DNA of 57,559 bases, filler included, from Sphacelaria rigidula (taxonomy: Eukaryota): assembly GCA_964200075.2 (NCBI GenBank). It is 6 parts of 6 records of this genome, joined end to end, with 100 filler letters (N's around TTAATTAATTAA, not from the genome) between each part and the next. Parts side by side here need not be neighbours in the genome. Positions count along the whole stretch, not along the records: positions 9,612 to 19,122 come from CAXNAA020008328.1; 5 more parts are not named here. One strand, given 5' to 3'. Under the pieces are notes generated by a model that did no database searches, had not been told where the DNA came from, and saw only the letters and a program-made list of their open reading frames with translations. The translations under genes and the position numbers were made by a program. This document shows positions 9,512-48,050 of the stretch, in pieces (within the stretch, counting starts at the first letter, position 1; every line of letters starts with the position of its first letter).

Positions 9512-9611
9512 NNNNNNNNNNNNNNNNNNNNNNNNNNNNNNNNNNNNNNNNNNNNTTAATTAATTAANNNNNNNNNNNNNNNNNNNNNNNNNNNNNNNNN
9601 NNNNNNNNNNN
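9512..9611. other. Artificial contig linker
   Basis: 100 nt of N containing TTAATTAATTAA (stops in all six frames). Confidence 0.99.
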
Positions 9612-10530
9612 GGACTGATTTTTTACCCGTCTTGGACAAACATTCTTGTTTGCCCAGAATGAAAATTGTGGCCACCGGAAAACGGGAAGGTGTGCTGGAA
9701 CCGCCTCAACCCGTAAAACGAGTCATTCCAAGGTGTCAAACGCCGCCTCGCTCTATCTTGGGGCGTAGAACGACGTAAAAGCTCCGAAAAGGCACTCTTC
9801 TAGATTTTTGTTCTTGTCTATCCTAACAAGCGGCCCAAGAGTCAGCTCTTTTAGAACCCACAGACGGTTTTTGTTTCCGTGAATCGGCATCATTCTTGGG
9901 TCGGAATGATGCCGAATCACGGAAACAACAATCGTCAGTGAGTTCCAAAAGGACCAAAAAGACGCGCTTGCATGTTTTCGCCTCAAGTGTTTACTTCTTG
10001 TCAGCGAAGCGTGGAGCATCGTCACTCCCTCTTGACGAACAGAAGTGCACGTTGCTTGGGTTATTTCTGCCTTCTCCTGCACGCCTACGTTTGCGGTCTG
10101 TTTCGAACGTCGCCCGCTAACCCTTCGCATCCTACCCTCCCACCCGCAGTACTGTACCGTCTGTACTGGCTCAAGCTGACGGGGCGTTTCCACCCACTCG
10201 CTCGTCCGACAGCGAACACCACGATGGGACAAGCCCCAAAGCCCGATTTGCCGGTCGGGTGTGCCAAACAAAACTGAGCCGCACAGCACAGTCTGCAGAC
10301 GTTGCGGGCTGGCACAGCCACTGCGCAGCACAGCACAGCGTTAGCTAACCGTATCCAGATGATTCCCCGAGATGCCGACTGAACGTCTGAGGAGCGCCTG
10401 GGGACAGGTCGGGTTATACTTTGACGTATAGCGTGCAGAAAGGCGCATTTTGTGATTCCCAGCGTCCCCCGAGTTTGTTCATGTGGCATTTCGTGCTTCA
10501 ATTTGCTCCAGCGTTTTTTTTGTGGGCATA

Positions 10531-10559
10531 AACCTTAACCCTAACCCTAAATCCCTAAC
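10531..10559 (+). repeat. Interstitial telomere-type repeat (CCCTAA)n
   Basis: AACCTTAACCCTAACCCTAAATCCCTAAC. Confidence 0.8.
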
Positions 10560-11108
10560 ACATAAGTGCATGCCTGGTGCACAACGAAATACGCTCTCCT
10601 AACTCTAAGAAATGCATTATCGGAACATAAAAAAAGCATTCCCGGAACATCAAAAGAAATTTCTTGGGAACAGAAAAATGAAACTAACATTAGGAAATAT
10701 AAAGCTTGTCATAACTATTTCCAGAACACTCGAATGCCTCCAGGGTTTCCACACGGGACCCCTATCCCCCGCAAGACGCCCACGGAAGGTTTCCACGATC
10801 GTGGTCCGCACACACCCCCCCACCCCTTTCACTCCTCTTCGCCTACCCATCAAAACCAACAAACCCTCGACAGTACGGACACTTCTTCTCGCGTTTCTCA
10901 TCCAGGTTTGCTCAGGTGAGTGCCAAGCATTGCACTATAGACTAATTCGAGGTCGGAGAACACGCTGGTGGCGTCCATTCCTCGCAGTTCGACGTGTACA
11001 GGGAGTTGTGTATCTATTAAATCAAAACTCTCGCAAAACCTTCTCTTTCCGTTCGAACACTATATTGCAAACATTCACTCACTTCATTGACGTCGTCACC
11101 GTCTCTCG

Positions 11109-11136
11109 TTAAGGTTAGGGTTAGGGTTAGGGTGAG
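11109..11136 (+). repeat. Interstitial telomere-type repeat (TTAGGG)3
   Basis: TTAAGGTTAGGGTTAGGGTTAGGGTGAG. Confidence 0.85.
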
Positions 11137-11579
11137 CCTCCTGTCGCACATTTAGGAGTCGACCACGTTCAGGAATTGTACCACGATGTCAATGTCGGAT
11201 TCGCCGAGTTACGGTTGGTACTGAAGAAGGTGGCGATCCCCGAAGCAGCAAATCACCCCGTAATACCCGCGTCATTGTTTAGACAGCGTTTCTACTTGAC
11301 CCTGTGAGCAGGGTCCTAGCCCAACTTTGTTATGTAAACATACATAGCTCACGATGGGACGTCTATGATATCAAACGTACATCACCCTATACCCTCAAAA
11401 CGTAGAAACCCTCCATCTCCTGCTGTTGTTCTGGTTGTCATCGCAGAAGATGTACGCACGTCAATCGTTATCCTAACCCGGATGCTGGAGACGTCGTCCC
11501 GGACGATGGCGTTTAAAAGACTGCCGGTGGTACGCCGCCCCCCCTGAAGCGAATTTGGACGGTTTTAGGGTTGGTGACA

Positions 11580-12460
11580 TGATATGTCACCAGATCCTAT
11601 CCTCAGACACTACCCAAACCTGACGTACTTCGCCGATTTTCACGAAACCAGGGCATTTACTGAAACCCACCTAAAACATGCTGAACACGATTCTTCTTTC
11701 TTTGTCCTCTTCTCAAGCATCCGTCGCGAAATGTGGTGAAACTCGGACACGCCGGGAGTTGTGACGCCCAACCCTAAGTTTTTGGGGTCATGCAGGCAGA
11801 CAACGTCACTCCTGGCACACGGAGTTTCCGAACTCAATCCCGAATACGCTGACGACAGATTGTGTTATGTTTCCATTTCATATGTCGCAACGTCGTCTCC
11901 TCAGCCCCTCCCCTAAGCTGCTGTACTTGATCAAGTGACGCGAAACCCGGGCATTTCCTGAAGCCCACCTCAACTTCGCCGAACACGAGTAGTCCTTCGC
12001 TTCCCTTTTCTCCGACAGTCGTCGCGACATGTGGTGGCTCCAAGTAGCGGGAGTTTGTCACGGACCGTTTCAAATTATTTTGGCCCTACTGGCAGACAAC
12101 TTCACGCCTGGCACGCGGATGTTCCTAAGTCAATCCCGTCCACGCTGACGACAACCAGTGTTATGTCGCCATCTTATGTATCGCAACGCTTGTCTCCCGA
12201 CACATAACCCTAACTCGACTTCGTAGGCCAAGTGCCGCAGAACCAGAGCCCATCCTGAAATCACGTCGAGTTCGCCGAACCCGAATCTTCCATCGCTTGC
12301 CTTTTTTGAAGCAGTCGTCGCAACATGTGGTGACTGTATAACGCGGGGGTTTGTGATGGACTGTTCAACGTAATTTTGGCCCTGCTGGCGGACGAACGTC
12401 ACTCGTAACCCTAACTTTTCGGAAGGCAATCCCGATCATGCTGACGTTTCCTGCGTTATA
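11580..12460. repeat. About three diverged 296-bp tandem repeats
   Basis: CAATCCCG....GCTGACG anchors at ~11834, ~12130 and ~12426 (period 296); GTCGCGA.ATGTGGTG and GCAGACAAC.TCAC also recur. Confidence 0.85.
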
Positions 12461-12644
12461 CTGCCGCCGAATATACGACCGAAAATCATACGAAATACTG
12501 GTCGTAGGCCGGCCGTGACCAGCGATAGAGAGACCGACACGTTACGTAACCCATGACATCGTTCTGGAATGGACAGGGAGGTACGCACCACGAATGTTGT
12601 AATTTATGTACCTGTACTCCTTCTCCTTCTCTCTCACCTTGCAG

Positions 12645-12855
12645 CTTCGCGTCACGCGGTAAGATGCACAACGAGAAGCACTACTCGAGCAGGACGGTCC
12701 GTAACAAAGTAAAGTCCGTGCTGTTGGACATGGCGGGCGCCATCACAACATGTGCGGACAAGATCGTAGAGACCGGGCTGGCGCGAAAGGACGTCACCGA
12801 CCTCGTCGAAGTGGCGAGAGACGCGTCCTGTACCCTACCGCCCGTCGACCCCTTG
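12645..12855 (+). CDS. Putative internal coding exon of an unassigned gene
   Basis: Polypyrimidine tract plus TGCAG acceptor, open frame FASRGKMHNEKHYSS...PPVDPL, donor TTG|GTGAGT; neighbouring exons not resolved. Confidence 0.4.
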
Positions 12856-13940
12856 GTGAGTCGCAGGTGTTTTTGTTAAGGCCGGACGTAGCCGCCCGAG
12901 CTGCAATGACCAACACGCTCAGGGTACCTCAGATGAAGGAACAACCCTCACCACTGCGACCATGACACTCGTCTCGACAGCCATCAACTGTTTGCGCACC
13001 TTTAGGCAGCGAGACGGCTGCCGTCATCGCGAAGTGAAACCCAAACTCAAACGTGACCAGAGGCGAACTTAACCCGCCGCCCTCAACCCTACGGTCACTG
13101 AAATTGACTACCTGTACGTACGCTACATTGCGCAGTACCAAACCCAAATATATTTACCCTACGTGGATGTGGGCGATGGCAGACCATCAAACCGTAACGT
13201 CGCGAGTCACCGCTTCTGGTTTGTTGATGAGGATGTGCACTTTTATGCCCCGCCCACGCGGGTGGTACATTCGCTACCCTATCCGCAGCACCTGGGAAGA
13301 AGAACGGGTACGCCGGCCGCAACCGTAATCGTGAAACCCTAATCGAAAGTAGTCCCCTAAACTGCTTCCTGTTGCCCACGACTGACTGTTTCAACCCATT
13401 AAGTCCCTAGGACGGTGCAGCCAACGTAGAGGGACCCTGTCCCTAAGTCGAAGAGAGGCAAACTCGCCCACCTGTCGGTCAACGCCCGGCGGCGAGATGT
13501 TATCGCAGGCATGCCACTGCTAAAAGGAGGAGGAAGCCAAATTCTGTTCGACATTATCGGTTTCCTCCCATGAAATGTAAAACCTGCGACCTCTAAGAAG
13601 AAATGTTACAAATACCCGCTGATGTCAATATAATGCGTGGCGCAAGGCTATCAGACATAAAAAGAAAACTCTCCGTGGCGGGATTTCAGAGGTGCAGACA
13701 CCGAACGTCTGCACCTCTGAGTTCCGTTGGACTTTCCCTCCCTTTTCACAAGCCACCAGTCCATGGAGCGCTCGGTCGGCGTTTTGTGGATGCCCCATCC
13801 GGCGATCCACATGAGTGAATAAGTGATGATTTGAGCAGTGCAGTTACTCGTCTTGAGTGATAGGACCACGTGTGCCTATTGCGTGTAGCACAGCACACGA
13901 TTTCGTCAGGGGAGAACGTCGTGAACGCCGCCCCCGACCA

Positions 13941-13970
13941 CCCTAACCCTAACCCTAACCCTACCCCAAC
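13941..13970 (+). repeat. Interstitial telomere-type repeat (CCCTAA)3 plus variants, upstream of the OTU gene
   Basis: CCCTAACCCTAACCCTAACCCTACCCCAAC; a further AAACCCTAA at 14065-14073 just before ATG 14081. Confidence 0.85.
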
Positions 13971-14080
13971 TCGTAAGTGATCCACCGTGAGGGAGCAAAT
14001 GTCAGGCCGAACTGTCGCCGAAATCTTATACAAACCTCACCCGACCGCGTACAACACCGTTCTCAAACCCTAACGAACAC

Positions 14081-17000
14081 ATGGATACTCCGCCTCGACC
14101 GATGTCTTGGCAGAGTCCCGGACAAGAATTTGACGTCTGCCACTTGGATGCTTACGCGAACGCCCTTCTGACGGGGGCCAAAGAGGAAGACGGGGGGGGG
14201 TGGGCAAAGCCCTTCAGTCCACCGGTGACGGCAATTGTTTATTCAACGCTGCAGCGACGAGCGCCTGGGGCAATGGACGGCAACGACCCAATGAAACGGA
14301 CCACCTCGCTCTCCCACTGCGCCTCGCCGTCGTCCTTGCGGGTGTGAGGCACCTGGGGGAACTCAACGACGACAACGATGGCTTCTTCCGGAGGATGGAG
14401 GCCTATGATGGGGATGTGACCGACAGGGCCGTGAAGAAGAAAATGCAATTACCCACAACATCCCCAACATCAACCATATATGCGGCAGACGTCTCGCGGG
14501 CACTCCTTCTTCTAGCGTTAACGACGATAACAGGCGAATGCACGGACGGCACCATATTTTGCCTACCTTTGATCGCGGAGGTTATCGGCGTCAACGTCCG
14601 GTGCTACTACCCAGGTGAGATGCTTTGTTTTACGCCCATCAAAAGGTGTGGGCTTATGCGATACGAGCACTTCATTAACCTCCCAGTCCTGCACCCAAGA
14701 AACGTCCCATCGACGCCGGTCCACCAGGCTTCACGACGGAGCCAGGAATAACGTAACCCAGCAGTCAACCAACCCTATCTTCCCCCTCGTCCAGGAACAC
14801 TGTACCTTGGACATATAAAAGGCTGACCGTAACGACCCGGAAGTCCCTGAGCGTGACGAAGACACGCACAAATGGGGGAAAATTGCTCCGCGCCCAACAC
14901 CAGCGCAGACACCCCGGCCGCGATGAAGTTGATATTGACGTGTCCTCTGTGGAGTAACGACTCTACCCGATTTCTGTACCTGCTCTGTCATCTCCCCTCC
15001 CGCAGTCGCGAGTATTACGAGTTCATCTGGAGATCATCTATCCTTCGGAGGACAATGGAACAAGGAAGTACACTCGCCACGAACAGCGGAGGGAAACGCC
15101 CGGCCAACAGTTACCATCCACCTCGTGGTGTCATCGTACAATAAGGGCGAGCCACCCTCCTTCCAAAACCTCGAACAGTTCAAGCAACAGTGCTTAGCGA
15201 CACGCACGAGCGACGATGGGAACAAGACCTACGAATACCTCAATCTTCCCCAAGTGAACCATTTCGTCCCGATCTGCCCAGGTGGAAGAGACGTTGTACG
15301 CGAGGTGGGTCCCAAAATCCACAACCGTCGAACGTGTTTATCGCTGAGCAGGTCAAATGTGAAATGCACGAGCTATTGGACTGGAGATTAATTCATACAA
15401 CATTAAAATATCCCCAGATAGGAACACGACGGTGATGCATGATAATCTATTAGCCACCCCGCACGAGGAGTGTCGAACCCTGACCGTAACCCTCACCCTA
15501 AACTGCGACGATATGATTGTTTAATTTCAAAAGTGCTCACAATGTGCCTCCCACAGGGCCGTCGTACTCCATCGACCGGTGGGAAGAAGAAAAAAGGAAG
15601 CACCACGGCAACGTCCTCCGGTCGAGGGAAGCAGAGGGGTCGCCCCCCGAAAGGGGGAAGAGGGAGGAAAGCCACAAATAAAACAAGGCGGCGAGGTAGC
15701 GTGGAGCAGACTACTTCCGAGAGTGACTCGGCGGGCGATCCTTACGCGGAGGGGAGCCAAGACGAGTCAGATCCCGCTTGGGATAGGGGCACGCGAAGCA
15801 GCGAATACTTGCAGAGCCTGGGCGACGAAGCACAGTCGGCGATGGCGCTCGCTCATGGTGACAAGCTTGATCTGAACACTACGACCTTACTGGGTGGAGC
15901 ACACGACCTGGGGACATCCGAGTCTATGTTACCAAAGTGCCTTTCGATGGAGGAAGAGCCCGGTGATCTAGACGCCGATTACTCAAGACGCCTCCTGCTG
16001 ACGGAGGACTTGGGGCAGAGGTTCATGTTGGAAGGAGTGGACACCCTCACCTACGAAGTTCCCAACCTGCGCAATATCGACATGCCACCGGACTGCGTGG
16101 CGCTGAACGTCGGGCGGGGACCGGGAGTGCTTCAATGCCTGCTACAGCTGACCCCCGGGCAGATGAAGGGCAAGGATGTCAAGAAAAGGAAAGAAGAGGA
16201 ACTCGCAGCTTTGCGTGACCGCCTGCTTCAACACATCGCAACATGCCGGCCGGCTATGCCCCTGCAACCCAACTCGAGGCCTGAACTGATGTGCCGAGCA
16301 CACCAGACCGTCCCGGCGGCAGCACTCCGACAGGCGCTACAAAAGGAACGCGTCAAGTACGTGTATCTGTACATGTGGGGCATGAAATCAGACGTAAACG
16401 ACTACCAACACTTGGACAAGGCTTCGGTTCGTGCACACGAGGAGATTGCCAACGATGATGGAAGTGTTTTTTACCTACCTAACCTGCACGACATAGCTCG
16501 AACTGTGAAGACCGGAAAGTCAGGAGTTCCCTTCGTCTGGTCGTATACAACAGGTCGGGGGTTTCCGGGGAGAGGGACCAGGGGACAACACGGGTGCGCT
16601 TCGATGAGAACCTTCGGTCAGATACCCGGGGTGTGGTCAACGGCATGCGGGTCCGTGCAAACGAGGGGGCCCACGGTGACCCAGTGGAACGACATAACGA
16701 AGTACACCATGTATACGCTCCCTGATCACGTCCTGCGCTCTGGAGGGCGCTTCACCTTCTTACTGGGCAAACGGGTGAGGACCGGTAGAGAGAGGATTAA
16801 GTGGATACGGCAATATTGGGACAGGAGTGTAGAGGAGAAGGTGGCCACCTTGAAAATGATCGGACAGGGCCTACGGATGGAAGCTCGTGTACAAGGAAAG
16901 GTAACCGCGGCAGACGCGGCAGCAACCTGTGTGGAGCAAAGGGTGCATGACGCGCCGACAGCATGGCGCGACCTCGGCCAGTACCAGACTGCCCTCGACG

Positions 17001-18820
17001 AAGATCCTGTCACCGGCGGGAGTGACCCCCACGCGGTCTTCTTCCCGGTGCGGTTCATGAAGCCGGAGGCGATGGCAGCACACGGGATTAGGGTGGCTGA
17101 TGCGGCGAGCGAAGTAGTGAGGGGTAAAGGCTCAAAAGAAATGACGGCGTCGATGACACAGGTGCTGATTGATGTATATGGAGCAGCCGGCCGCACTATA
17201 AAAAATAAGCGGTGCACAGACCCCCGAACCCTGGCGAGAGAGAATAGGACTTTCTGGGTGTTCGATGCCGAGGCCAAGCGTCGCGAACGCTTAGGGTTAG
17301 GAAAACCTCGCAGAACCAACCCCCCGCGCCGGGCAAGACCCTCAAAGGGGACGCTAGCAGAAGATGGTCTGCATCGGTCACCGGTCCCTCCCAGCAAGCG
17401 CGCAAGGCCGATTGAGGAGGACTCGGAGGCTCACCTGTCCTCCTCCTCTTCGTCCGACGAGGACGACGATGAAGACGATCAGGTATGTCCAGGGGGAGCT
17501 CGGTCGGGCAGGTCAAATTGGGACGGGACAGTCATAGGAGAGGCCTTGGCCCGGCGAAGGTGGAAGAGACGCCGTACCGACAGTCTAATGGGACAGGAAT
17601 CCCCCGGAGGTAGCGTGCAACCGCACGTCGAGTCGACTCGGAATAGTGAAATCCTAACAGACGATATGTCTGTTGACGACGAGGGTGTGGGGGGCAGCGG
17701 AGAGCGTGACGCGGAGACTCGACGCGGCAGAGTGGGCCCAGACCCTACTGATGGGCAGTCGCTTGACAACGACGACGGTCGTGATTTCCCCCGTGGGAGC
17801 GAGGACGGTACCGACGCCAGCGCGGGTCTAAGTGAACCGTGTTATGATAATGCATACCGTGGCATAATCCCAGGAGGTGGTGCAGGTGGCCACGGGGATG
17901 GCAGCGGGAGCGATATAGGAGAAATACACGGCAGTAGCACAGATGTGGTCCCAGACATTGCGTCTATTACTGGTGAAGGTGGTATTGGTGACGCGGCACA
18001 CAGTGGAAGCATGGAAATGAAAAGCACGCGGGGTCCTGGAGATGGCGGAGAAGACGCGGAGGGCGGAGGAGCCAAAGTTGGCACGGAAGTGACGCGGAGT
18101 ACAGTGGTCGGGGGTAGGGGGGGGGACCCTATGAGATACCCTACGCGTATAAACCGAAGTACAGCATCCAACGATGATACACATGTGCCTCGGGGTCGTC
18201 ATGGCAGCCGCGTTCGACGGTCTGGACTCCGACTATCAGCAGCCGTCCGAGAGACAACAGATTCTACAGCCCTAAGTCAAGAATTGTCGTCCCCCCGACA
18301 AGTACGAAAAACGCAAGAGCGGACTGTTCGCAGAGGCCTTAATCGCAGCAGCAAGACGACGTCGGGTGCTGCTAGCGACACGCGAAGGAACAGGGACGAC
18401 GATGGTCGCCCGCGTCACAGGGCACGGCGGGCACAACGCTTCGGGTTGCTAAGCGCTGATGAGTCAACATCGAGCAGTAGATTCAGCCGTGTACCGCTCT
18501 TTTCAGGTGAGATCACCAGGGCTGAGTCGTCGACAGAAGCGAAGGCGGCGGAGTCAGCGAGCGAAAAAACCCAATCACAACGTGTGAGGGCAGATGCTCT
18601 ACAAAGGATGCGGCAGACCGTCGTCGTTCGGAAAAAAAACGAATTTGGTCGCAGAGGGTTGACATGGGCAACGACTCCAACCTCCGTCGACAGCAGGTGT
18701 GGTAGTGGCCACCTATGCTGCGAGAAAGGTAAGGTATATGAGGCGATATGGGAAAAGTACGGAGCTGCGTGGGCGGACCATGTTGTGACGGAGCGTACCC
18801 AGCGCCATGGATCACAATAA
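14081..18820 (+). CDS. Three-exon gene: OTU/vertnin-like cysteine protease, AT-hook and large unassigned region (exons 14081-14614 with a frameshift at G9 14192-14200, 15006-15304, 15557-18820)
   Basis: OTU Cys box STGDGNCLFNAA in exon 1 and His box VNHFVP in exon 2. Splice sites are phase-compatible: CCAG|GTGAGA to CGCAG|TC (phase 1) and GAG|GTGGGT to CCACAG|GGC (phase 0). RGRPPK AT-hook-like motif at the start of exon 3, which is open for ~1,090 codons. Confidence 0.8.
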
Positions 18821-18944
18821 ACCGTGATGGCTGGAAGCATCAGCGTCGACAAATGCACTTCCGAGCCCGACGGGAGTGGATTTTGCATGAACGCCTGACG
18901 AGGCTGCCGCCCGCCTCCTTTCGGAGGAACATGCAGCCAAGCTG

Positions 18945-19122
18945 ATGGATCTTCAGCGACAGGCTTCCCTAGACCAAGCCACTAAGACGGCGACACACAG
19001 AGCTTTGCAGGAAGGGAAGATTGCAGCCTTGACGGCACAAAGGAGGGTCCGCGAGCTCCAAGAGCATGTTCGGCGCACTACGCGAGAAGCCGAATCGTCG
19101 AGGGCGCGGGTGACTCACCATC
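18945..19122 (+). CDS. 5' part of a possible coiled-coil ORF cut by the contig end
   Basis: ATG-initiated, A/Q/R/E-rich helical sequence open up to the gap. Confidence 0.3.
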
Positions 19123-19222
19123 NNNNNNNNNNNNNNNNNNNNNNNNNNNNNNNNNNNNNNNNNNNNTTAATTAATTAANNNNNNNNNNNNNNNNNNNNNN
19201 NNNNNNNNNNNNNNNNNNNNNN
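19123..19222. other. Artificial contig linker
   Basis: 100 nt of N containing TTAATTAATTAA. Confidence 0.99.
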
Positions 19223-24436: not shown

Positions 24437-27400
24437 GGGGGGGGAGGCGTACTCATTTGTTGCTTGCCTTAGTCGGTCGACCATTGACCACGCACGCCTT
24501 CCGAAACGGAGCACCGTTCATACTCCTAATAGAGGCACCTCCAACATTTAGGTGCCCATTACGTTCCTTCCATATACACTACACAAAGCCCTTTTACATA
24601 TCTGATCCCCGTCCTGTTTTGCCGTCTGTGGCCACCATCTATCTCCTAGTATAGCCATCGATTTTTTCGCTATTATCTGATGCATCAAACGATTTCATCC
24701 CACTTCGTTCACGTCCCGCATTTCCCCCTCTAGCACGTCCCGTTCTTCCTTATGTAGCCTATATTCTGCCACTACATAAGCTCTGCTCTCTATTGCTTCA
24801 CCACAGGATCAGTTCTGTGCATCTACTCCCTCCTCCTTTTGACAACTGGTAAATATCTTTCTTCTTTCTGACAGGTCCAGGTCACTCACCCGAGATCGCA
24901 ATTCCAATTTTTTCGCCGTGTCCATTGGGCCATGCAGATATGTTTTCATCCCTATCTCCTCTCTCAACCCACCGTATATCTTGAGGTGTTCTTTCTCGTC
25001 TACTTTGCGTCGTAGCGCTCCTTTCCCCCTCATTTCGATTATGTCTCTTATTTTTGCCTTGTACCCCGCGCCTTCACCTGTGGACAGTATTTCGTCTTGG
25101 TTTTTTGCCATACGTTCTCGACCTCTCTATCCCACCTCATTCCAGCCTTCCCTTTCGTAATTTCTCTCCATACAGCCTTGTCAACTATAGCTGGCAATCT
25201 GTTTCTCTGCATGTTCTTTACGCTATACTGCCATCGCAATTTTCTCATTTCTCTGTTTGTTTCAAGTGGGCACATTCTCCATGTTATTTTACCTGTCGTT
25301 TTCGAGCATCGAAGCATTTTCTTAGCTGCTGCCATCTGTACTGTTCCCAACTTCTTCCCCAACTTCACGTTCCCCTCCCACACTTCTCCTGCATACTCCA
25401 GCTTTGGTACAATCACGTTCATCAGGATACATCTCTGAATTCTAGTATCTAGGTGCGAGTATCTGAGGATTACGTCCATCCTGCCTATTTGTGACTTACC
25501 CTTTTCGATTATTTTGTTCATGTGTGCATCCCAAGGACAGCGTTTTGAGATATCTGCGCCAAGGTATGAATACTGGTCCACGATCGGCAGTTCCCCTTCT
25601 CCCCACTTCCATTTAACCTCTACCGGATTTTTCTCATCTTCGTTACAGGCGAGTACCGCGTATCTGTTAACGTTCGCTGTTACCCTTCATTTCCTAGTGT
25701 TTTCTAGCGCCTTGTCTATCTGTGTCTGCAATCCTTCGGCTGTTCCTAAAATCCACACAAAATCATCCGACATCAATCCTGATACCATATCTTGACCCAA
25801 CTTGACCCCTTGCTTTGCTGCTTCTATTGCTAATATCAGGTCATTAATAAATACCTTGAACAGAGTGGGTGATAACGTTCATCCTCGTGCAACTCCTCGT
25901 AGAATATAAAAATATTTCGATATTTCCCCGTCTAGCATCATGGCACTTTTGGCATATTCTGTCATCTTCATCACTATTCTCCACATCTTTCCTCTGATCC
26001 CACTTTCCCACAACGTTTTCCACAGCCATTTTCTCCATACTATGTCATAAGCCTTTTGCACGTCCAGGAAGATACAGTACGTCGTCAGCTTGGCGTCTTT
26101 TCTACCTTGAATAATCTTACCTGGTGTGTACACATGGTCTACGCAACTACGGTTTGGTTGAAGACCTGCCTGCCCCTTCGCTGAGTTTCTCTTCCTTTTC
26201 TAGCATAATTCCTACTCTATCGTTCAGAACCTTACAGAATATTTTCCTCACCGTGCTTAGTAGTGGTATCCCTCCATAGTTCCCTGGGTCAGCCTTGTCT
26301 CCTTTTTTGAAAAGGTTGACAACTACTCCTCCTCTCCACCTGTTGGTTGGGTACTCGTTTTCCCGATCCAGCTATACAGCAGAACCATCATGGTAATCAT
26401 TCCCTCTCCCCCGTACCTAAGAAATCCCTTCACTATTTCGTCTGCCCCTGCTGCCTTCCTGTTCTTGAGTTCAGCTACGCACTCCTTTGCTTCATCTCTG
26501 GCGACTTCTCTTTGCAAATCTTTCGAGCCACTATCCTCCCGTTTTGACGTCTCTACATTTGCCTCTGCCCATGTGCTGATTTCTTTTTCGAGTTCTATGT
26601 CGAACTTCGTTGATTTTAGGCGTTCCTAGTTTACGGTAATGCTCGACTAGCACTTCTCTCTTCCCCTTCGAGCTGCTGACCATTTTTACCCTTCTGTGCC
26701 CGAAATTTGACTATCCCGTTGTCCATCCTTCCTGCCTGGTTTCACGTCATCCCTTTTATCCCTACCCACAATTGTTTGATTCCGCCATCGAAATTTTCAT
26801 TCGTTTTATTCACTACTTTTTCCCATACTCCCTTATTTTTCTTCTCTAACATCTTCTTTAGTTCCTTTCGAGCTTTAGTATACTTCTCCCATCCTACCAT
26901 AGTTTTACTCGATATGCATCTCGCGTGGGCCTCTCTCCTCCCTCTTATAGCCTGTTTTATTTCCTCATCCCACCATTTTACTGCTCTGTCGTATACGATC
27001 AGTTTCTTCTCTATGACTTTACTCGCTGTACTCTTGACCAACCGCTCCCGTCCTTCAGTAATCTTCGCTCCTGCCCAATTTCTTTCCATTTCGGTATGAA
27101 CTGTACCCACGCTTTCCAACAGCTCGGAAGATTTCACAGCATTTTTGGCTACCTCTTCATTGAACTGTTGCTGATTTTTCTCCATATCTAGTTTATCGAT
27201 GTTCCATTTGTACAAGTTTCTACCCCGCCTATTGCTTTGACCTCTCGTCTATTGGCTTTCTGTCCATATTATGCAATGATCTGTAGTTCCCACGTCCGCC
27301 GCGCATACATGTACTTCCATTTCTTTACTGTTTCCATGCTTTACCACTATATAGTCAAGAACGGACTTCTTCTCTCTTTTTTTTTTTAATTCTCTACTTG

Positions 27401-28732
27401 ATAGGCTTTGCGCCTCTGGCTCTTGTGCCTCCATCGTTCAGCGTCTTCATGTCGTATCAGCATTTCCACCCCACTCGTGCCCTTCTTATCTCCCTCGTAT
27501 TGTCCCATGATATCATCCGGTTGACCTGCTTTTTCTACCCTTGCACTAATATCTCCCACTAGCATTACTTCTCCTTGCATTTTATACTTATGTACATCTG
27601 CTACTATCTCCCTCAACCTCCGCTGTATATCGTTCATCCTACTCTTCGATGCTGGGGGGATTCAGGTGTTCCTCACGAATAAGTCCTTCGTTCCCCGCTC
27701 ACCTGGTGCTCGTATCCATATGCTCTCGTCGAATGTCGTGTCGTCGATCACTCCCATAATGCTACACAGGTATTCCTTGACTAAAAACCCTACTCCCCTC
27801 GCTCCCCTGCTCTTGGGGTTCTGTCCCTTGCGTTTTTTCCTTATCCATGCGTACTCTTCAGCTTTGCATCCTACTTCCGCCCCTTCTTCCTCGTATGATA
27901 CTTGGATTCCTACGATATCTAGGTCGTGATTTCTTACCTGTTGCGCTGGTTCTATTATTTTGCGCTTGCCTGTGGCGAATCCACACACGTTCCATGATTC
28001 CATGCTCAACTTCCTTTCCGAATCATTACCCACTCTCCTGTTGTCTACTGTTCTCTCTCCGTCGCTTTGACTTCTGCTTTCCCTTGCTTGCTTGTTCTTT
28101 CGGTTTCCTATTCGATCCTTGTCCATTCGCTTCGGACCGCTGTGTCCCCGCCCCTTCCCCTTCCGGGCACTTACTTGTTTCTGCTTCTCTTTCCCTCCAT
28201 TCACCCGTGGACTAGTCTTAGGTTTGTTGTTTCGTCAGCAATGCATACTCTTCATCCTACCTTTCGAATCCATGCCGACACCTTACTCGTCTCTATTCTT
28301 TCCCACTCCGTGCTCGCGCTCTGTTTAGCTTGACTCGAAAGTGTTCTCCTTCTCTTTCTCCTTTTCCTCTTGCCAAACAGTATAATCCAACTGCATTGCA
28401 TTTCTTTTTAAACTCCATCCTCGTCATATCGGGACGGACTTCGAATACCAGCACTACTAGTACCTTACCCGACCACTCTCTACTTCTTCATCCGCCCTTC
28501 CTTGCCGTCTCTCTCTCATTCTTCTTCGAGAGTATTTCCAACTTGTTCATTTTATTTGTCTCCGTGGGGTATCTTAAACGTACTGGGATATCCCAATCCT
28601 AGTACTCGTTGGGGGTCTGGTGTCTGTCAGTTCTTTTGCTGGCTCACCGACACTAAATTATGCCTCCAACACGGGCTCGTAGCCTGAAGCCAAGTTCATC
28701 ACCTTTGTCACAAGTACCCCACGTTTGTGCCA
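24437..28732 (-). mobile_element. Decayed LINE with APE endonuclease and reverse transcriptase; many stops and frameshifts
   Basis: APE motifs SWNVCG, LDIVGIQ, GVGFLV, LVGD, LDYI and TDH at ~28010-27250. RT motifs KAAGADEI, FLDVQKAYDIVWR, GVARG, MSDD and YSYLG at ~26500-25500. The 3' tip ends at a G/C run near 24440. Confidence 0.93.
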
Positions 28733-28832
28733 NNNNNNNNNNNNNNNNNNNNNNNNNNNNNNNNNNNNNNNNNNNNTTAATTAATTAANNNNNNNNNNNN
28801 NNNNNNNNNNNNNNNNNNNNNNNNNNNNNNNN
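28733..28832. other. Artificial contig linker
   Basis: 100 nt of N containing TTAATTAATTAA. Confidence 0.99.
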
Positions 28833-30131
28833 TCTAGAATCGTTAGGAGCCCCTGAACCAGACAAAAATTCGCGAAAAAAGTGCACCCCTACCGTAGCAT
28901 TGCTCTACTGTGACTCCCATCAATCCTCCCCCATGGGACTGATTCGGACCGTGGTTCGTCTCACTGCTCTCGTACCCTTCTTCTATAGTCATGGAGGAAT
29001 TTCGAGGGAAATGCTGCACTGCGGTACAGTCAACCCCACGTCCGGCATGTATGGATCATACGTCGTGGACTCGATAAATTATTCCAGAGAACTGGCGATG
29101 AGGTAGCAAGGAACCACATCGACATTGGCAACCGCAGTAGTTGTTCGTGCACGAAGGCGCAGAGGAAGCATGCGTGATAACGTTCAAAGACAAAACAGAT
29201 AATACGCGATGCAGAAGAGTTTGTATACACGCATGAATAGTGTACAACACCGCGGACAGAACTTCGTCGTACAACAGTACAGTATGTAGGGGGGGGGAGG
29301 GTCAGGGGCTGGGATATACACAATACAAAAGCATGCCGCAAGGTGCCATCATGCTAATATCAGTTCGCGTGAGCCAGATGCAGCTGCACGGATAAAAAGA
29401 CAGGGGAAGCTCAAGCATAGCAACCTGGAATCTTCAAGGGGTGCAGTTGAAACTATTGTGATGCTAGTTTACGCCAAGTGCTACTGGTCCTCGTGCGTCT
29501 ACAGTACAGTTGTGCGGTTGTGCTGGCAATGAGAGGAGTATTGTGCCACGGGCACCTGACCACGCGTTGGATGTATGCCAACTTTTTTGTATTGTCTCGC
29601 GCAGCAAACCGGTAGCAGATGCGCCGCTAATTACAGGGATTGCGACAGCTGCCGCGTAAACGAGTACACACGACCAAAGCCCTGCAAATCTCTACAGGGT
29701 GCCGGCAGGTCAACACGGGCGTTATCAGAAGCTGAATACAGTGTACTTCACTTGTGCATTTTTGCGGGTGCTCTATAGAAGTGCAGGAGCCCTATTTGTC
29801 TGCAAGACTTCAAACGCCCAGCGGAGTACGGTAGTGCTGTTCGCGCGCCACAGCAACGGTTTTGTTATTGACGAAGATATATATGATGATTCCCAAAAAC
29901 AAAATAACGACGACAGGCGCGCGATCTGTCTGTTCTACCTTTTGGTTAGAAAGACGGCGTAGTTCTGCGAGATTTATGTACTACTGCATACTCGCCGGCC
30001 GTGCGCGCCGTGATGTCGATGTTGCGGAGCTATAGAGGGAGAGGGAAAATGATGGCAGTCGGCTTGCGAGACTGATAGTACCAGGAGTAAGATTGACACG
30101 TGTTTGTCCTTGCATTGTACTGTTGTTGTAG

Positions 30132-35700: not shown

Positions 35701-37208
35701 GTCGCGGACTGCAAGACAAACCGCATGTCCGTGAAAAATTACGAGTATAACATTTTTGGGCTTTTTGCTTCAAGCTTCCACGGCGGTCAACTGCGGTGGT
35801 GCATCGTGGTGTAAGGTACATTTCTGCTGCGGTGTCGCGCAAGTTCATAAATCCAGTACCGTAGCATACCGCCTAATCGCACGATCGTGACTTTCCATAA
35901 CCGTGGAATACCGTGCCGCGAATCCCTGGTACCGTGCCGCAGATTTCCTGTGCCATGCCGTACCATACCGGGGATTGCCGATGATATCATACCGTGCAAA
36001 GGCCGTGAAATACCTATCGTCAATATTTCGTTCAAGAACTGCTGATTATCACGGAACGAGAACGTTCCCCCGGGTCTTGTTTACACGCGCTCAAGAATAC
36101 ATACGGTACAATACACGCAGCTAAATGGCTGTACTTGGGCCATGCAAAGAACCACGACTCCGCGATCGGATACCCAGTGTTTCTATTCCCGCGGGGGAAG
36201 CCCAACGAATTTGAGTTGACCTTGTGAAAACCGCAGTCCTTTTGGCCTCTCGCCGTCCCGACGTGCACTTCACAGGTATCGCACACCCTGCACCGCAGTG
36301 ATACCGAGAAAATCAAGTGCCATGCCGTCGCAAGCACTCCCCGGATACCGCTTCCGAGCAAAGCACTGAACATCTCCAGTGGAAATCCACTTTCGCCCGG
36401 AAGAAAATGGGCGGGGGAAAGACACACCTGTTCGATCCCACACAAATACGTATCCTATTTTGTTCGCGTTCGTAGGTTGGACGTGTTTTGTCAGCACTTC
36501 TCCCTCGCCCTGAATTTCGCGTGATGCGAAGTCGCCCCAACGGCTGCGATGAACCTCTTGTGGGACGTTTGCCGGCACCCCATGCCATGATTTGCACGTT
36601 CCCCACTGGCCCCACGTACAGTAACAGTGGACGAGCCGACCGATGCCCAGACGAAGAAAACGTTGGACGCACAAGCCCTGAAAATACTCGAGAAGGGCCC
36701 GACACCCCAGGATGGCGAAGGGGTTGTCTACATACTACGTGTCCGCGGTCAGAAAGACGAACCGTTCAAGGTTGGGATGACCATAGGCCTCAAAAAACGC
36801 ATAGCGACGCTCAAGAGCCAGAACAAGGAGGAGTACGAGCTTGTCGGCTTCTGGAGCGTGCGCTGGCGAAAGAGATGTGAACAGGCGTGCCACGCTGCCA
36901 TGGAGGACAGGCGATTGCTCCACAGGCTGAAGGGGGACAAAACGAAGCAGAACGGAGGTAGCGAGTGGTTCCGCGGGGACGAGCAGGCGATCATAGACAT
37001 AGTGGACGGGGTGGTACGCTCGGCAAACACAATCGCTGCGGGAAAAAACAAAACACACGATAGGAAAACATCTGCTGTAACCCCGAGCGCCCCCTGCAGT
37101 CTGATGGTACAACGGACACCAAGAGGGTGGGGGAAACACGGGTTCGAATCCTGCCAGATGCGCCTTGTTTTCTTTTTGTCCTCAGAACTGATCGATTTCC
37201 GTCCTTGA
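34573..37208 (+). CDS. Spliced gene, 5' end not found: three C-x9-C-x10-C-x2-H zinc-finger exons (34573-34734, 35049-35210, 35511-35672) plus a T5orf172/MUG113-type GIY-YIG nuclease exon (36622 or 36628 to ~37208)
   Basis: Each finger exon is 162 bp, bounded by AG| and G|GTGAG, phase 1-1. The last exon starts in phase 1 and reads GVVYIL...FKVGMT...KRIATL...EQACH...GGSEWF. Confidence 0.8.
37100..37180 (+). other. tRNA-derived SINE-like head (Pol III A and B boxes)
   Basis: TGGTACAACGG A-box-like at ~37105, GGTTCGAATCC B box at 37141, closing TCTG/CAGA stem, then a T-rich run; no anticodon arm. Confidence 0.45.
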
Positions 37209-38341: not shown

Positions 38342-38441
38342 NNNNNNNNNNNNNNNNNNNNNNNNNNNNNNNNNNNNNNNNNNNNTTAATTAATTAANNN
38401 NNNNNNNNNNNNNNNNNNNNNNNNNNNNNNNNNNNNNNNNN
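38342..38441. other. Artificial contig linker
   Basis: 100 nt of N containing TTAATTAATTAA. Confidence 0.99.
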
Positions 38442-43399: not shown

Positions 43400-44459
43400 T
43401 CGTTGCGCTTGGGGGCGTCGACAGTTGTCGGCGACAATGTTGGCTGGGTAGTTGTTGGTGATGCCGCAGGGGAATGCGGTGCCGGTGATGCGGGCGGTTG
43501 TTCTAGTGTTGTTGTCGGCGCTACGGCTGTCGGCGTTTTCGGCGGTGTTGTCGGCGCTGCGACTGTCGGCGTTGTCGGCGTTGATGTCGGCCCTGCGGAT
43601 ATCGGCGTTGTCGGTGGTGATGTCGGCGCTGCGGCTGTTGGCGTTGCCGCCAGTGTTGTCGGCTCCACCGACGTGTGGGCGGCGCCGAGCCCCGGTCATC
43701 GATGAAATGTTGAGCTGGGTTTCGTAAAACCCCCCGCCCCCTCCCGCCTGTGCAAGGAGGCGGCGAGGTCATCTAACCCCCCCCCCGCCGATAGCGGAGG
43801 TCTGTGGTGTGGCGTCGTCTGCGTCCCGTTCGGAGTTGGGGAGCAAAAACGACACGCGACGTGAACCGCGTGGTGGAGCCCGCGGCACCGGGGTTTGCTC
43901 CACGGGCTCGCTGCCGGCCAGCCCTCCTTCAATCCGGTCACCCCTCGCTCCGCCGAGCGTCGGGATCGCTTGCGGTATCACCAACAGCTATCCAGCCAAC
44001 ATTGTCGACGACAATCGTCGACACCCCCAAGCGCAACGACGGGAAGGGGCGATGAAGCTCCCGAACTCCCAAGGACGGAGCTACACCGCCTTGCACTCGA
44101 CGACGAATTGTCTCTGTCTCCGCAAATGGCAGGCCGCACGCGCAGTGTGATGAAAGCGGCAGCCGACCGGAACGAGCTAGGGGTCTGCGATGTGGCGTCG
44201 TCTGCGTCCCGTTCGGAGTTGGGAAGCAAAAACAACACGCGACGTGAACCGCGTGATGGAGCACGCACCACCGGGATTTGCTCCACGGGCTCGCTGCCGG
44301 CCGGCCTTCCTTCGATCTGTTCATCCCGACAACACCGACGAAAACGCCGACAGCCGTAGCGCCGACAATAACGCCAGAACAGCCACCCGCACCGTTGGCA
44401 CCGCGTTCACCCGCTGTATCACCAAACACTACCCAGCAAACATTGTCGTCGCGTCCTCT

Positions 44460-45834
44460 ACAGTACTTCGGCAGGCAATCAGCTGGTGTCGTCTCTTACC
44501 CCACCTACCGCAATACCTGTCTGGACAGTCTCTCGCTCGATGCGTTGTCATCTTCTGACAAATGTGGCAATTCCACGTCATCGCAGCCTCCGACTGGCTC
44601 GTTGACGATGAAGTCGGCGACTGGCTGTTTTCGCCCTGGCCCCCGTCCCCTCCGGACTTGGTTCCTGGGTCTTCACCGGTTTGCCTTTCCGGCGTGAGCC
44701 ATTAGGTTTACCGGGTTGTTCCTTGACAGCAAGGGTCTGGTCGCCTGAGGAGAACTTCCGCCCCTTCGCGAGTTCCTGCTTGAAAAGTGCCGATTCGAAA
44801 CGTTTTCGAACCGACGCTGCCACGATTTCCCTCGTGAATGCCCCCTCGCGCTCGTCCAGCGCATGCTTCTGGTAATGATACTCACAGGGAAGTGCATTGA
44901 CAGATTTGAGGAGGGTATGCGCCTCGGTCAGGTTGATGGTGGTGTCGTGTGATTGCATATCTCTCGCCACTTCTTCCATCTCGATCAATTTCTGGACCGG
45001 ATCACCACGAACGCCGATCTTCACATGGCCATACTCGTCCAAAAGTGCTAACCTAGCTCCGTTGGTCTTGGGACTGTAAAACTCATTCAAGTCACGCCAC
45101 ACAGCTGCAGGAGAAGGAATTCGGAACAGAACATCCCGGTCCCGTTTGTGTCCTAGGCTTGCCACCAACATCTACCTCGCTCTGATGTTTGCAGCTACAA
45201 TGCCCTTCCCATGCCTTGCCTCTAGATACCTCACGGACAGCGCCGTGTTCCCCACCTCCACATCGTGCGAACTATCTTCCGACATGGTGAATACCCAGTC
45301 ACCTACTTCACTTCTTGCAAAATTGATGAGTTCTTGTTTGTAGTGGAAGAAATCTGAACTCTTTCCAGAGAACTTGGGTACAGTAGCCTTGAAAACCGGC
45401 ACCCCAGGAACAGTTTGGACATTTGGTCTATCATGACCGAACACTGCGACGGATTCACTTGCGGGGCCTGCACCGCTTGCTCCGTCGCTTGCTGTCCTAT
45501 GGTCGCTCCCGCTCGAAGCTCCCTGCTCGCCCTCGAGGCTACGTCTTCGACCTTGAGATGTGCTGTGCTTGGCTGAGCTGTCAGCCTGGTGGTGTTGTGT
45601 TGCATGATCGTCTTCGCTTTCGATGACGCCGCTCCACTGCACGCCCCGGGGTTCTTGATCTTTTATGCCATCTACTCGACCCAGTAGTACAGTTTGTTCA
45701 TACTATACATCCCTAACTAAATCAGTCAATGTGCTAAAGTCACCGCTGAAAAGGCTGATCATGTTTTCAAGTTGATTCGCCGGTCCATTTATCCTTCCTG
45801 CAGAAGACGAAACGTTACCATCATTACCAGCCAT
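44460..45834 (-). pseudogene. gag: Copia gag remnant
   Basis: ATG at ~45834 just inside the 5' LTR; interrupted frame with VWRDLNEFYSP and two CCHC-like knuckles; in-frame stops. Confidence 0.8.
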
Positions 45835-47950: not shown

Positions 47951-48050
47951 NNNNNNNNNNNNNNNNNNNNNNNNNNNNNNNNNNNNNNNNNNNNTTAATT
48001 AATTAANNNNNNNNNNNNNNNNNNNNNNNNNNNNNNNNNNNNNNNNNNNN
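47951..48050. other. Artificial contig linker
   Basis: 100 nt of N containing TTAATTAATTAA. Confidence 0.99.

Follow-up and report, generated by a model that had tools for sequence, protein, structure and literature searches.

The known eukaryotic rolling-circle elements, Helitrons and CRESS-DNA viruses, to our knowledge all use HUH endonucleases. OTU open reading frames (ORFs) are carried by Helentrons, and OTU proteases are also found fused to Ginger1 transposases. A different kind of initiator, Rep_trans (PF02486: pT181 RepC/RepD, pSTK1 RepSTK1, Tn916 Orf20 and CTXphi RstA), appears to be confined to bacteria, apart from a distant branch in archaea that was not recognised until 2026 (PMC13107129). 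In these proteins the tyrosine is located on a beta-strand, the metal is bound by Asp, Asp and Glu of three separate strands, and the motifs are designated N' (D), I (RxD), II (T/SxY/ExG), III (YxKxxE) and IV (W/LxRxE), as described in Carr 2016 (PMC4797284) and in the review PMC5714925. The Rep-Arvir proteins (DUF7845) are initiators of archaeal viruses and plasmids (PMC13107129). Here we describe a spliced gene of Sphacelaria rigidula (assembly GCA_964200075.2), located in a window (the whole stretch of DNA that was analysed) of 57,559 nucleotides, filler included. The gene is tentatively read, short of confidence, as a copy, inactivated in recent times, of a gene from an undescribed selfish element, encoding a Rep_trans-like tyrosine nickase of the TATA-binding-protein (TBP) fold fused to an OTU protease.

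The gene is located on a 9.5-kb contig at positions 9612-19122 and comprises four exons (Table 1). The intact protein would have ~1,418 aa, arranged in the following order: (i) a short N-terminal helical segment; (ii) an OTU-like protease; (iii) an AT-hook/basic linker; (iv) a domain of ~455 aa; (v) a disordered tract; (vi) a W/Y-rich domain. The sole named relative is EukProt gene model g15360.t1 (P0008) of the brown alga Nemacystus decipiens, which is collinear with the window gene from exon 1 through the big domain and unites the latter with the OTU-like part in a single polypeptide. Its residues 1-70 match exon 1 (22/70 identical, E 5e-9, BLASTP), and tblastn places residues 66-93 at 14117-14200 and residues 97-231 at 14209-14613 of exon 2, the start of which is preceded by a CAG acceptor (upstream sequence ..TCTTGGCAG). 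At the junction 14614/15006, which splits a codon in phase 1, the donor is GTGAG and a long run of pyrimidines leads up to the CAG acceptor; the Nemacystus protein spans this position without a break (..RIFNPVASIP.. versus ..RCYYP-V-ASIT.. of the spliced window), and in P0164 and P0165, exon-level ORFs of other records, the family likeness ends right after ..CFYPG, that is, at the position of intron 2. The 15304/15557 junction, in phase 0, likewise has a pyrimidine tract, between a GTGGG donor and a CCCACAG acceptor. Introns 2 and 3 are both closed by stop codons, and P0004, from another sequencing run, is 99% identical to the exon 4 product. The contigs of all four sequencing runs aligned to the locus carry the introns and do not bear on splicing or expression. 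Judging by the canonical in-phase junctions and the collinear Nemacystus model, the four-exon spliced gene is real.

An earlier, sequence-only reading of the window had proposed a protein of ~1,360 aa, spliced in phase from three ORF fragments and starting at ATG 14081. The three stop-to-stop ORFs do exist (14134-14751, 14939-15391 and 15446-18820) and both junctions are in phase, but the pieces give no single open frame (the G9 break described below), and the protein length has to be replaced by that of the four-exon product. The ATG at 14081 was rejected as a start because it falls inside the 1258-nt intron 1, exon 2 beginning at 14114 after its acceptor; the N-terminus of the Nemacystus protein is matched by the upstream exon. 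Another ATG, in frame at the 3' end of intron 3 (15542-15556, MCLPQ followed by GRR..), opens an ORF of 1092 aa that corresponds to the gene-caller product P0004. Given the break in the frame further upstream, an internal transcript starting in intron 3 could still serve for translation of the large domain alone. Telomere-like degenerate CCCTAA(C) motifs are present in the 3' parts of introns 1 and 3 (13335-13365, 13940-13970, 14066-14078 and 15476-15506); the two introns have a 31-nt motif in common (71% identity), and the CTAAC of these motifs is what we take to be a resemblance to the branch-point consensus. The hairpin in intron 1 has a 19-nt stem and a 7-nt loop (z -5.5).

A one-base frameshift in exon 2 inactivates the copy in the window or, at the minimum, interrupts it. 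The start of this exon (14114-14200, SPGQEFDVCHLDAYANALLTGAKEEDGGG, ending ..ANALLTGAKEEDGGG) is read in frame 2, the Cys box in frame 1, and the exons total 4256 nt, which is not a multiple of 3. Since three homologues (P0008, P0164 and P0165) read EDGGG(A/S)G in one frame across the G-run site, the window copy is one base short. An assembly error private to this record was considered and rejected because contigs of runs X1 and X3 (one study), which cross the G9 site with 0 gaps, share the run length; among the four sequencing runs whose contigs were aligned to the locus, none has a listed indel. The 25 coding differences among the aligned contigs comprise 16 nonsynonymous and 9 synonymous changes, a nonsynonymous share of 64% versus 75.6% expected by chance, and the density of single-nucleotide polymorphisms is 0.0059 in coding versus 0.0051 in non-coding sequence. 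The recent variation looks near-neutral.

The region of ~450 aa, the disordered tract and the W/Y-rich C-terminal domain noted in the sequence-only reading are all present, and the region is conserved. The family to which it belongs is rare: a HMMER search of 1.84 billion protein representatives gave 27 at E<=0.001, of which 9 reach E<=1e-30, with Nemacystus as the one named member among the 27. The shared layout consists of the large domain, a low-complexity tract and a small W/Y-rich C-terminal domain. The tract is not conserved in homologues, and its start, as modelled, has a predicted local distance difference test score (pLDDT) <50. The C-terminal domain has 12 invariant columns in a 6-sequence alignment and no PDB sequence or Pfam match. 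One distant family member is represented by six variants (P0011, P0038-P0042), 99.4-99.8% identical; the contigs that bear them measure 7,720-8,876 bases, with three at exactly 8,876. The set could reflect a discrete repeat or circular unit, and equally one locus in several strains.

In silico modelling of the large domain with AlphaFold2 (AF2), based on 19 sequences, yielded a confident prediction (pLDDT 82.1, pTM 0.79) of a TBP-like curved beta-sheet. At the top of 48,161 PDB chains (VIA) was RepSTK1 (4cij_A), with Z 6.0, a root-mean-square deviation (rmsd) of 4.3 A and 196/267 residues aligned, model residues 57-417 lying on chain residues 4-248. After re-alignment of 494 Foldseek candidates, the first three were Rep_trans (Z 6.1, 4.3 and 4.0), followed by five TBP chains (Z 3.4-3.6); the Rep_trans alignments at Z 6.0-6.1 cover 196-207 residues and those of the TBP chains ~143-150. 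Nine of the best 20 BFVD rows belong to one accession series, which includes A0A345MNV4, an Inoviridae Rep_trans initiator (PMC13107129). Modelling of the spliced product domain by domain, as the sequence-only reading had suggested, gave a confident large domain with Rep_trans as best match, but an unusable model of the OTU part. At the sequence level, the large domain of all 19 members lacks a match in Pfam (to E<=10), PHROGs and NCBIfam, no usable neighbour came from the ESM Atlas, and CFAP46, the sole PDB sequence-profile match, was discarded (E 1.5).

The alignment of the family revealed a set of invariant polar columns (13/13 to 17/17, at most one exception): D60, D62, R93, Q171, K198, D208, N230, D233, Q289, T305, Y307, H312, R361, E363 and R365. 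The counts are 13/13 for D60/D62, 16/17 for D233, 15/15 for T305/Y307, 16/16 for R361/R365 and 15/16 for E363. D60/D62, D233, Y307 and R361-x-E363 each have a predicted strand of their own, four in all, and their succession follows that of Rep_trans motifs N', I, III and IV; Y307 lies on predicted strand 301-308. The full order in the family is D60/D62, NxxD233, G286-S-x-Q, T-x-Y307 and L-R361-x-E363; a K/E context after the tyrosine occurs in P0010 only (YNKKEH). From the offsets to the alignment ends we infer that D62 corresponds to D9 (5 residues from the start) and E363 to E196 (54 versus 52 residues to the end). For profile comparison, five Rep_trans sets were assembled from genome contigs and a 301-genome scan (8 genomes with matches); a pT181 RepC search listed only relatives of at least 86% identity and was unfit for a deep profile. 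In sub-optimal hhalign alignments with these sets, motifs I-III fall opposite D233, the GS turn and Y307, and motif IV once opposite R-x-E, which may serve as a lead only.

The OTU-like part was identified by its Cys box GDGNCLFNA (14224-14250; Cys codon 14236-14238) and His box VNHFVP (15254-15271; His codon 15260-15262), which are located, as had been claimed, on different exons (2 and 3). The Nemacystus equivalent of the His box, ..LRHFVPICP, keeps (N/R)HFVP at the right place, though no profile aligned this stretch. Pfam OTU (PF02338) matched the Cys box only (E 0.07-0.14, profile positions 2-20) and gave no match in P0008, P0164 or P0165. Against the PDB, the profile of the region found only 2 chains with E<=10; they are the OTU deubiquitinases A20 and Lpg2248 (Legionella), aligned at the Cys box. 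In the ESM Atlas, the best clusters for residues 60-345 of the Nemacystus protein are OTU (score 0.92, 181/256 features, 20/30 hits in the OTU set). The OTU identity rests on the Cys box and the language-model features and is suggestive; the OTU domain as first proposed is backed by these two, but not by the whole-domain Pfam score, which is sub-threshold, nor by the fold model. The RGRPPK reported to follow the His box is indeed present (15635-15652), forming an R-G-R-P core with basic flanks (KQRGRPPKGGRGRK, core RGRPPKGGRGRK). The counterpart in P0012 is GIGRPPKK, and the AT-hook position is not kept in all family members.

Table 1. Features of the gene and of the window (positions along the whole window).
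Feature	Position	Strand	Details
Exon 1	12664-12855	+	64 codons, ATG, donor GTGAGT at 12856
Intron 1	12856-14113	+	1258 nt; contains (CCCTAA)3 at 13941-13958, hairpin 13681-13725, ATG 14081
Exon 2	14114-14614	+	N-terminal half of OTU-like domain
G9 homopolymer, 1-base frameshift site	14192-14200	+	frame 2 to frame 1
Intron 2	14615-15005	+	391 nt, phase 1, GTGAG...CAG
Exon 3	15006-15304	+	C-terminal half of OTU-like domain
Intron 3	15305-15556	+	252 nt, phase 0, GTGGG...CAG; telomere-like motif 15476-15506
Exon 4	15557-18820	+	1087 codons + TAA; AATAAA overlaps stop
AT-hook-like basic motif RGRPPKGGRGRK	15635-15670	+	by sequence only
Conserved domain, predicted TBP-fold, Rep_trans-like, ~455 aa	15926-17293	+	AF2 model + structural alignment
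D60/D62	15971-15979	+	family-invariant
N230/D233	16481-16492	+	family-invariant
T305/Y307	16706-16714	+	family-invariant
R361/E363/R365	16874-16888	+	family-invariant
Low-complexity G/R/S/D-rich tract, predicted disordered	17474-18586	+	composition
C-terminal W/Y-rich domain (..RKKNEFG..GLTW..VYEAIWEKYG..W..)	18590-18817	+	conserved across family; P0007 tblastn
Spacers	9512-9611, 19123-19222, 28733-28832, 38342-38441, 47951-48050		44 N + TTAATTAATTAA + 44 N, steps ~9.6 kb

The reading as a decayed selfish-element gene takes as its basis the exon structure, the frameshift, the domain order, the rarity of the family, the fold and the invariant residues; catalysis, mobility and a role of the OTU part would be steps beyond these. 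The large domain would act as a metal-dependent tyrosine nickase/ligase of the Rep_trans or Rep-Arvir kind, in which D60/D62, D233 and E363 may hold the metal, the attack on DNA would come from Y307 on its beta-strand and leave a 5'-phosphotyrosine link, and the phosphate would be bound by R361, R365 and K198/K303. The AT-hook may direct the protein to AT-rich DNA, and the OTU part might strip ubiquitin from the protein itself or from host chromatin/repair factors, as proposed for the OTUs of Ginger1 and Helentrons. The gene would then belong to a rare transposon- or episome-like element of brown algae and other protists, of which this copy has recently decayed. The frameshift, the near-neutral variation, the patchy family, the unplaced contig dense in telomere-like hexamers, the published OTU transposons and the Rep-like fold are compatible with a selfish origin, though not proof of it. 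The proposal in the sequence-only reading of a selfish-element gene coupling DNA binding to deubiquitination is borne out in part: the fusion of OTU-like part, AT-hook and large domain agrees with it, but the contig offers no further domain of mobile or viral type. The labels "large" and "viral" given there to the element are conjecture.

A number of points weigh against this reading. Pfam searches of the 9.5-kb contig turned up neither a helicase, reverse transcriptase, integrase or capsid nor any further domain of mobile or viral kind; the contig also shows no transposon ends, target duplications or partner genes, and a second copy of the gene was not found within the window (tblastn and contig-versus-contig comparison). 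Scans of IMG/VR viral contigs and of metagenome contigs gave no confirmed relative, and nothing connects the hairpins at 9848-9951 and 13681-13725 to the protein as origin or nick site. With regard to the fold, a Z of 6 is modest, values <8 may represent just a common arrangement and unmatched models typically reach a best Z of 7-8; Foldseek with the large-domain model gave no match at E<=0.001 in the PDB or BFVD. Neither Pfam, PHROGs nor NCBIfam provided a sequence-level link of the large domain to Rep_trans, and hhalign against the five assembled sets gave P 0.1-0.67 and a probability <1%. The residue context differs from Rep_trans (NxxD, not RxD, and no conserved K/E after the tyrosine), and a clustering of the candidate active-site residues in the model is presumptive. 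The Pfam OTU match scores 13.1-14.1 bits, under the gathering cut-off of 23.3, and the AF2 model of the OTU part, built from 5 sequences, reaches a pLDDT of 35.8. Finally, the sequencing runs compared at the G9 site may include the window's own source, and the polymorphism counts are small and may mix alleles and copies.

The second structural class among the matches, the TBP chains, is the starting point of the best-surviving alternative, according to which the locus is a lineage-specific or domesticated host gene for a nuclear chromatin or transcription factor that combines a TBP-like saddle with an AT-hook and deubiquitinates chromatin, the window copy being a pseudogenised paralogue or allele. 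These chains are next-best (Z 3.4-3.6 over ~143-150 residues) and are outscored by the Rep_trans chains, and a DNA-binding saddle alone leaves the invariant Asp, Asp, Tyr and Arg-x-Glu on the strands unexplained. The gene itself has the appearance of a host gene in several respects, namely four exons with ordinary splice signals, a host-like GC content, a single occurrence in the window, a contig lacking transposon ends and partner genes, and a gene model in the Nemacystus annotation. However, the family is extremely patchy, the copy is frameshifted with recent variation that looks unconstrained, and the contig is unplaced and repeat-rich. Taken together, a host gene is considered unlikely.

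A second alternative follows from the OTU-like part, the nearest ESM Atlas clusters of which consist of OTU proteases with a taxon label of 98-100% Viruses, Nucleocytoviricota being the most frequent, although these taxon labels rest on few labelled members and are no test of descent. The gene would in this case be the remnant of an endogenised giant-virus (phaeovirus-like Nucleocytoviricota) gene that gained introns and is decaying in the host genome. Brown-algal endogenous viral elements, for which the text of PMC11890097 lists an OTU-like protease, can gain introns and a host-like GC content, and an ORF of T5orf172/MUG113 type is present on another contig of the window. However, the IMG/VR viral-contig scans returned no relative of the large domain or of the OTU part, BFVD gave no significant match, and no viral core gene was found on the 9.5-kb contig, which is too short to exclude a larger element. 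A giant-virus remnant is considered improbable, more so than a host gene. The least probable candidate, hinted at in the sequence-only reading, is a Helitron/Helentron-type rolling-circle transposon gene, which would agree with the OTU ORFs of Helentrons and with a large-domain fold resembling a rolling-circle initiator; however, Helitron proteins possess an HUH Rep, with the catalytic tyrosine on a helix, plus a Pif1-type helicase, whereas the model here is a TBP-like sheet with the invariant tyrosine on a strand and neither an HUH Rep nor a Pif1-like helicase has a Pfam match in the gene or any scanned ORF of the contig, so that this identity was rejected as very remote.

The genomic setting of the gene is limited to its own contig. 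The window is a pseudo-chromosome made of size-sorted unplaced contigs of ~9.5 kb, chained by N44-TTAATTAATTAA-N44 spacers, and neighbours across a spacer are therefore unlinked; the spacer core TTAATTAATTAA carries stops in all six frames. The setting of telomeric motifs on an unplaced contig, to which the sequence-only reading had drawn attention, holds for this short, repeat-rich contig: it contains 22 of the 29 CCCTAA/TTAGGG hexamers of the window, of whose length it makes up 16.5%. On this contig neither Rfam nor a tRNA scan gave a match, and no part of it recurs in the other contigs of the window.

Apart from the gene, the contig possesses several features of its own. A near-perfect hairpin at 9848-9951, located 2.7 kb upstream of the gene, has a 48-bp stem and an 8-nt loop; as single-stranded DNA it folds at -38.6 kcal/mol (z -10.1), as well as which 0/200 shuffles fold, and it could be a foldback similar to a miniature inverted-repeat transposable element or an origin-like structure. 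Just upstream of exon 1, at 11582-12446, there are ~3 copies of a ~298-bp unit (~70-76% identity), each including the AACCCTAAC motif, on which Tandem Repeats Finder is silent. Downstream, an open frame (18891-19122) with coiled-coil-like sequence (..LQRQASLDQATKTATHRALQEGKIAALTAQRRVRELQEH..) begins 70 nt past the stop, runs off the contig end and has no Pfam match. The other contigs of the window contain (i) the T5orf172/MUG113 (GIY-YIG-like) ORF at 36591-37208 on the plus strand (E 5.6e-12); (ii) a copia-type gag fragment at 44578-45171 on the minus strand (Retrotran_gag_2, E 5.2e-7), near which a 36-nt tandem repeat of 4.3 copies is located at 43510-43663 in a stretch of 62% GC; (iii) a segment of strong strand asymmetry at 25001-29000 (GC skew ~-0.32, AT skew -0.30 to -0.38) with minus-strand ORFs at 25048-25686, 26742-27248 and 27662-28234, which look like a non-long-terminal-repeat retrotransposon ORF by eye and have no Pfam match at E<=0.01.

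If the reading as a decayed copy of a nickase-OTU gene is true, a eukaryotic member would place the TBP-fold nickase class in all three domains of life and would represent a new type of transposase or initiator for eukaryotic mobile DNA. The fusion to an OTU would be a further, independent case in which transposition is tied to ubiquitin removal, comparable to Ginger1 and Helentrons. A wider claim, that the family, with its OTU and AT-hook, represents the first TBP-fold tyrosine nickases of eukaryotes and marks a new class of rolling-circle transposon or episome-like element of brown algae and other protists, parallel to Helitrons in mechanism yet unrelated to them, is doubtful at present. In the conservative reading, the large domain defines a protein family that is uncharacterised, has a confident fold prediction and carries invariant residues of an enzyme-like pattern. 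Among the matches listed, the titles and abstracts of the literature on Rep_trans and on eukaryotic transposons describe no eukaryotic Rep_trans. The literature on TBP-like-fold rolling-circle proteins with eukaryotes yielded only the archaeal study PMC13107129, and that on brown-algal OTU proteases and transposable elements nothing on this family; supplements, which in the case of PMC13107129 and PMC11890097 might list relatives, lie outside these searches.

Compared to known systems, the large domain has its best structural match in Rep_trans, with a TBP-like crescent sheet and with Asp, Asp, Tyr on a strand and Arg-x-Glu arranged as motifs N', I, III and IV are along the Rep_trans chain; the GS(L/V/I)Q(S/T) turn of the family also resembles motif II of the Tn916-type proteins. 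There are also differences between the two. These relate to the large domain, which is about twice as long as Rep_trans and has additional helices in the interval from the Tyr to the RxE strand, to the motifs (NxxD for RxD, no YxKxxE context, no detectable sequence or profile similarity), and to the gene, which is eukaryotic, contains introns and is fused to an OTU, an AT-hook and a long disordered tail. Rep-Arvir was recognised in a similar way, from marginal Foldseek PDB matches, BFVD TBP-fold proteins and A0A345MNV4, without sequence similarity, with an rmsd of ~4.5 A to RepDE and a conserved Tyr and acidic residues, and this structure-only link to Rep_trans was afterwards proven by mutagenesis (PMC13107129). 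In contrast to Rep-Arvir, the algal family has no Pfam DUF7845 match, no evident winged helix-turn-helix, and another host domain and other partners. By analogy, the Rep-Arvir precedent makes a structure-only route to Rep_trans likeness plausible, without being a demonstration for the algal family.

The gene resembles Ginger1 and Helentrons in that an OTU-like protease is linked to a putative DNA-processing enzyme in genes with introns. Their partner, however, is a DDE integrase or an HUH Rep/helicase, whereas here it is a predicted TBP-fold domain, and the algal OTU part is too divergent for Pfam. The OTU-like cysteine proteases of Nucleocytoviricota are its nearest language-model clusters, and an OTU-like cysteine protease is listed in the text of PMC11890097 for the phaeovirus-derived elements of brown algae; those of Nucleocytoviricota, in contrast, are stand-alone proteins of ~240 aa. 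The TATA-binding protein, as the second structural class (Z 3.4-3.6), has a curved antiparallel sheet of the same connectivity, but it scores lower and the algal domain shows no sequence repeat symmetry. In comparison with the TATA-binding protein, the invariant acidic and Tyr residues of the algal family suggest a chemistry that may go beyond DNA binding.

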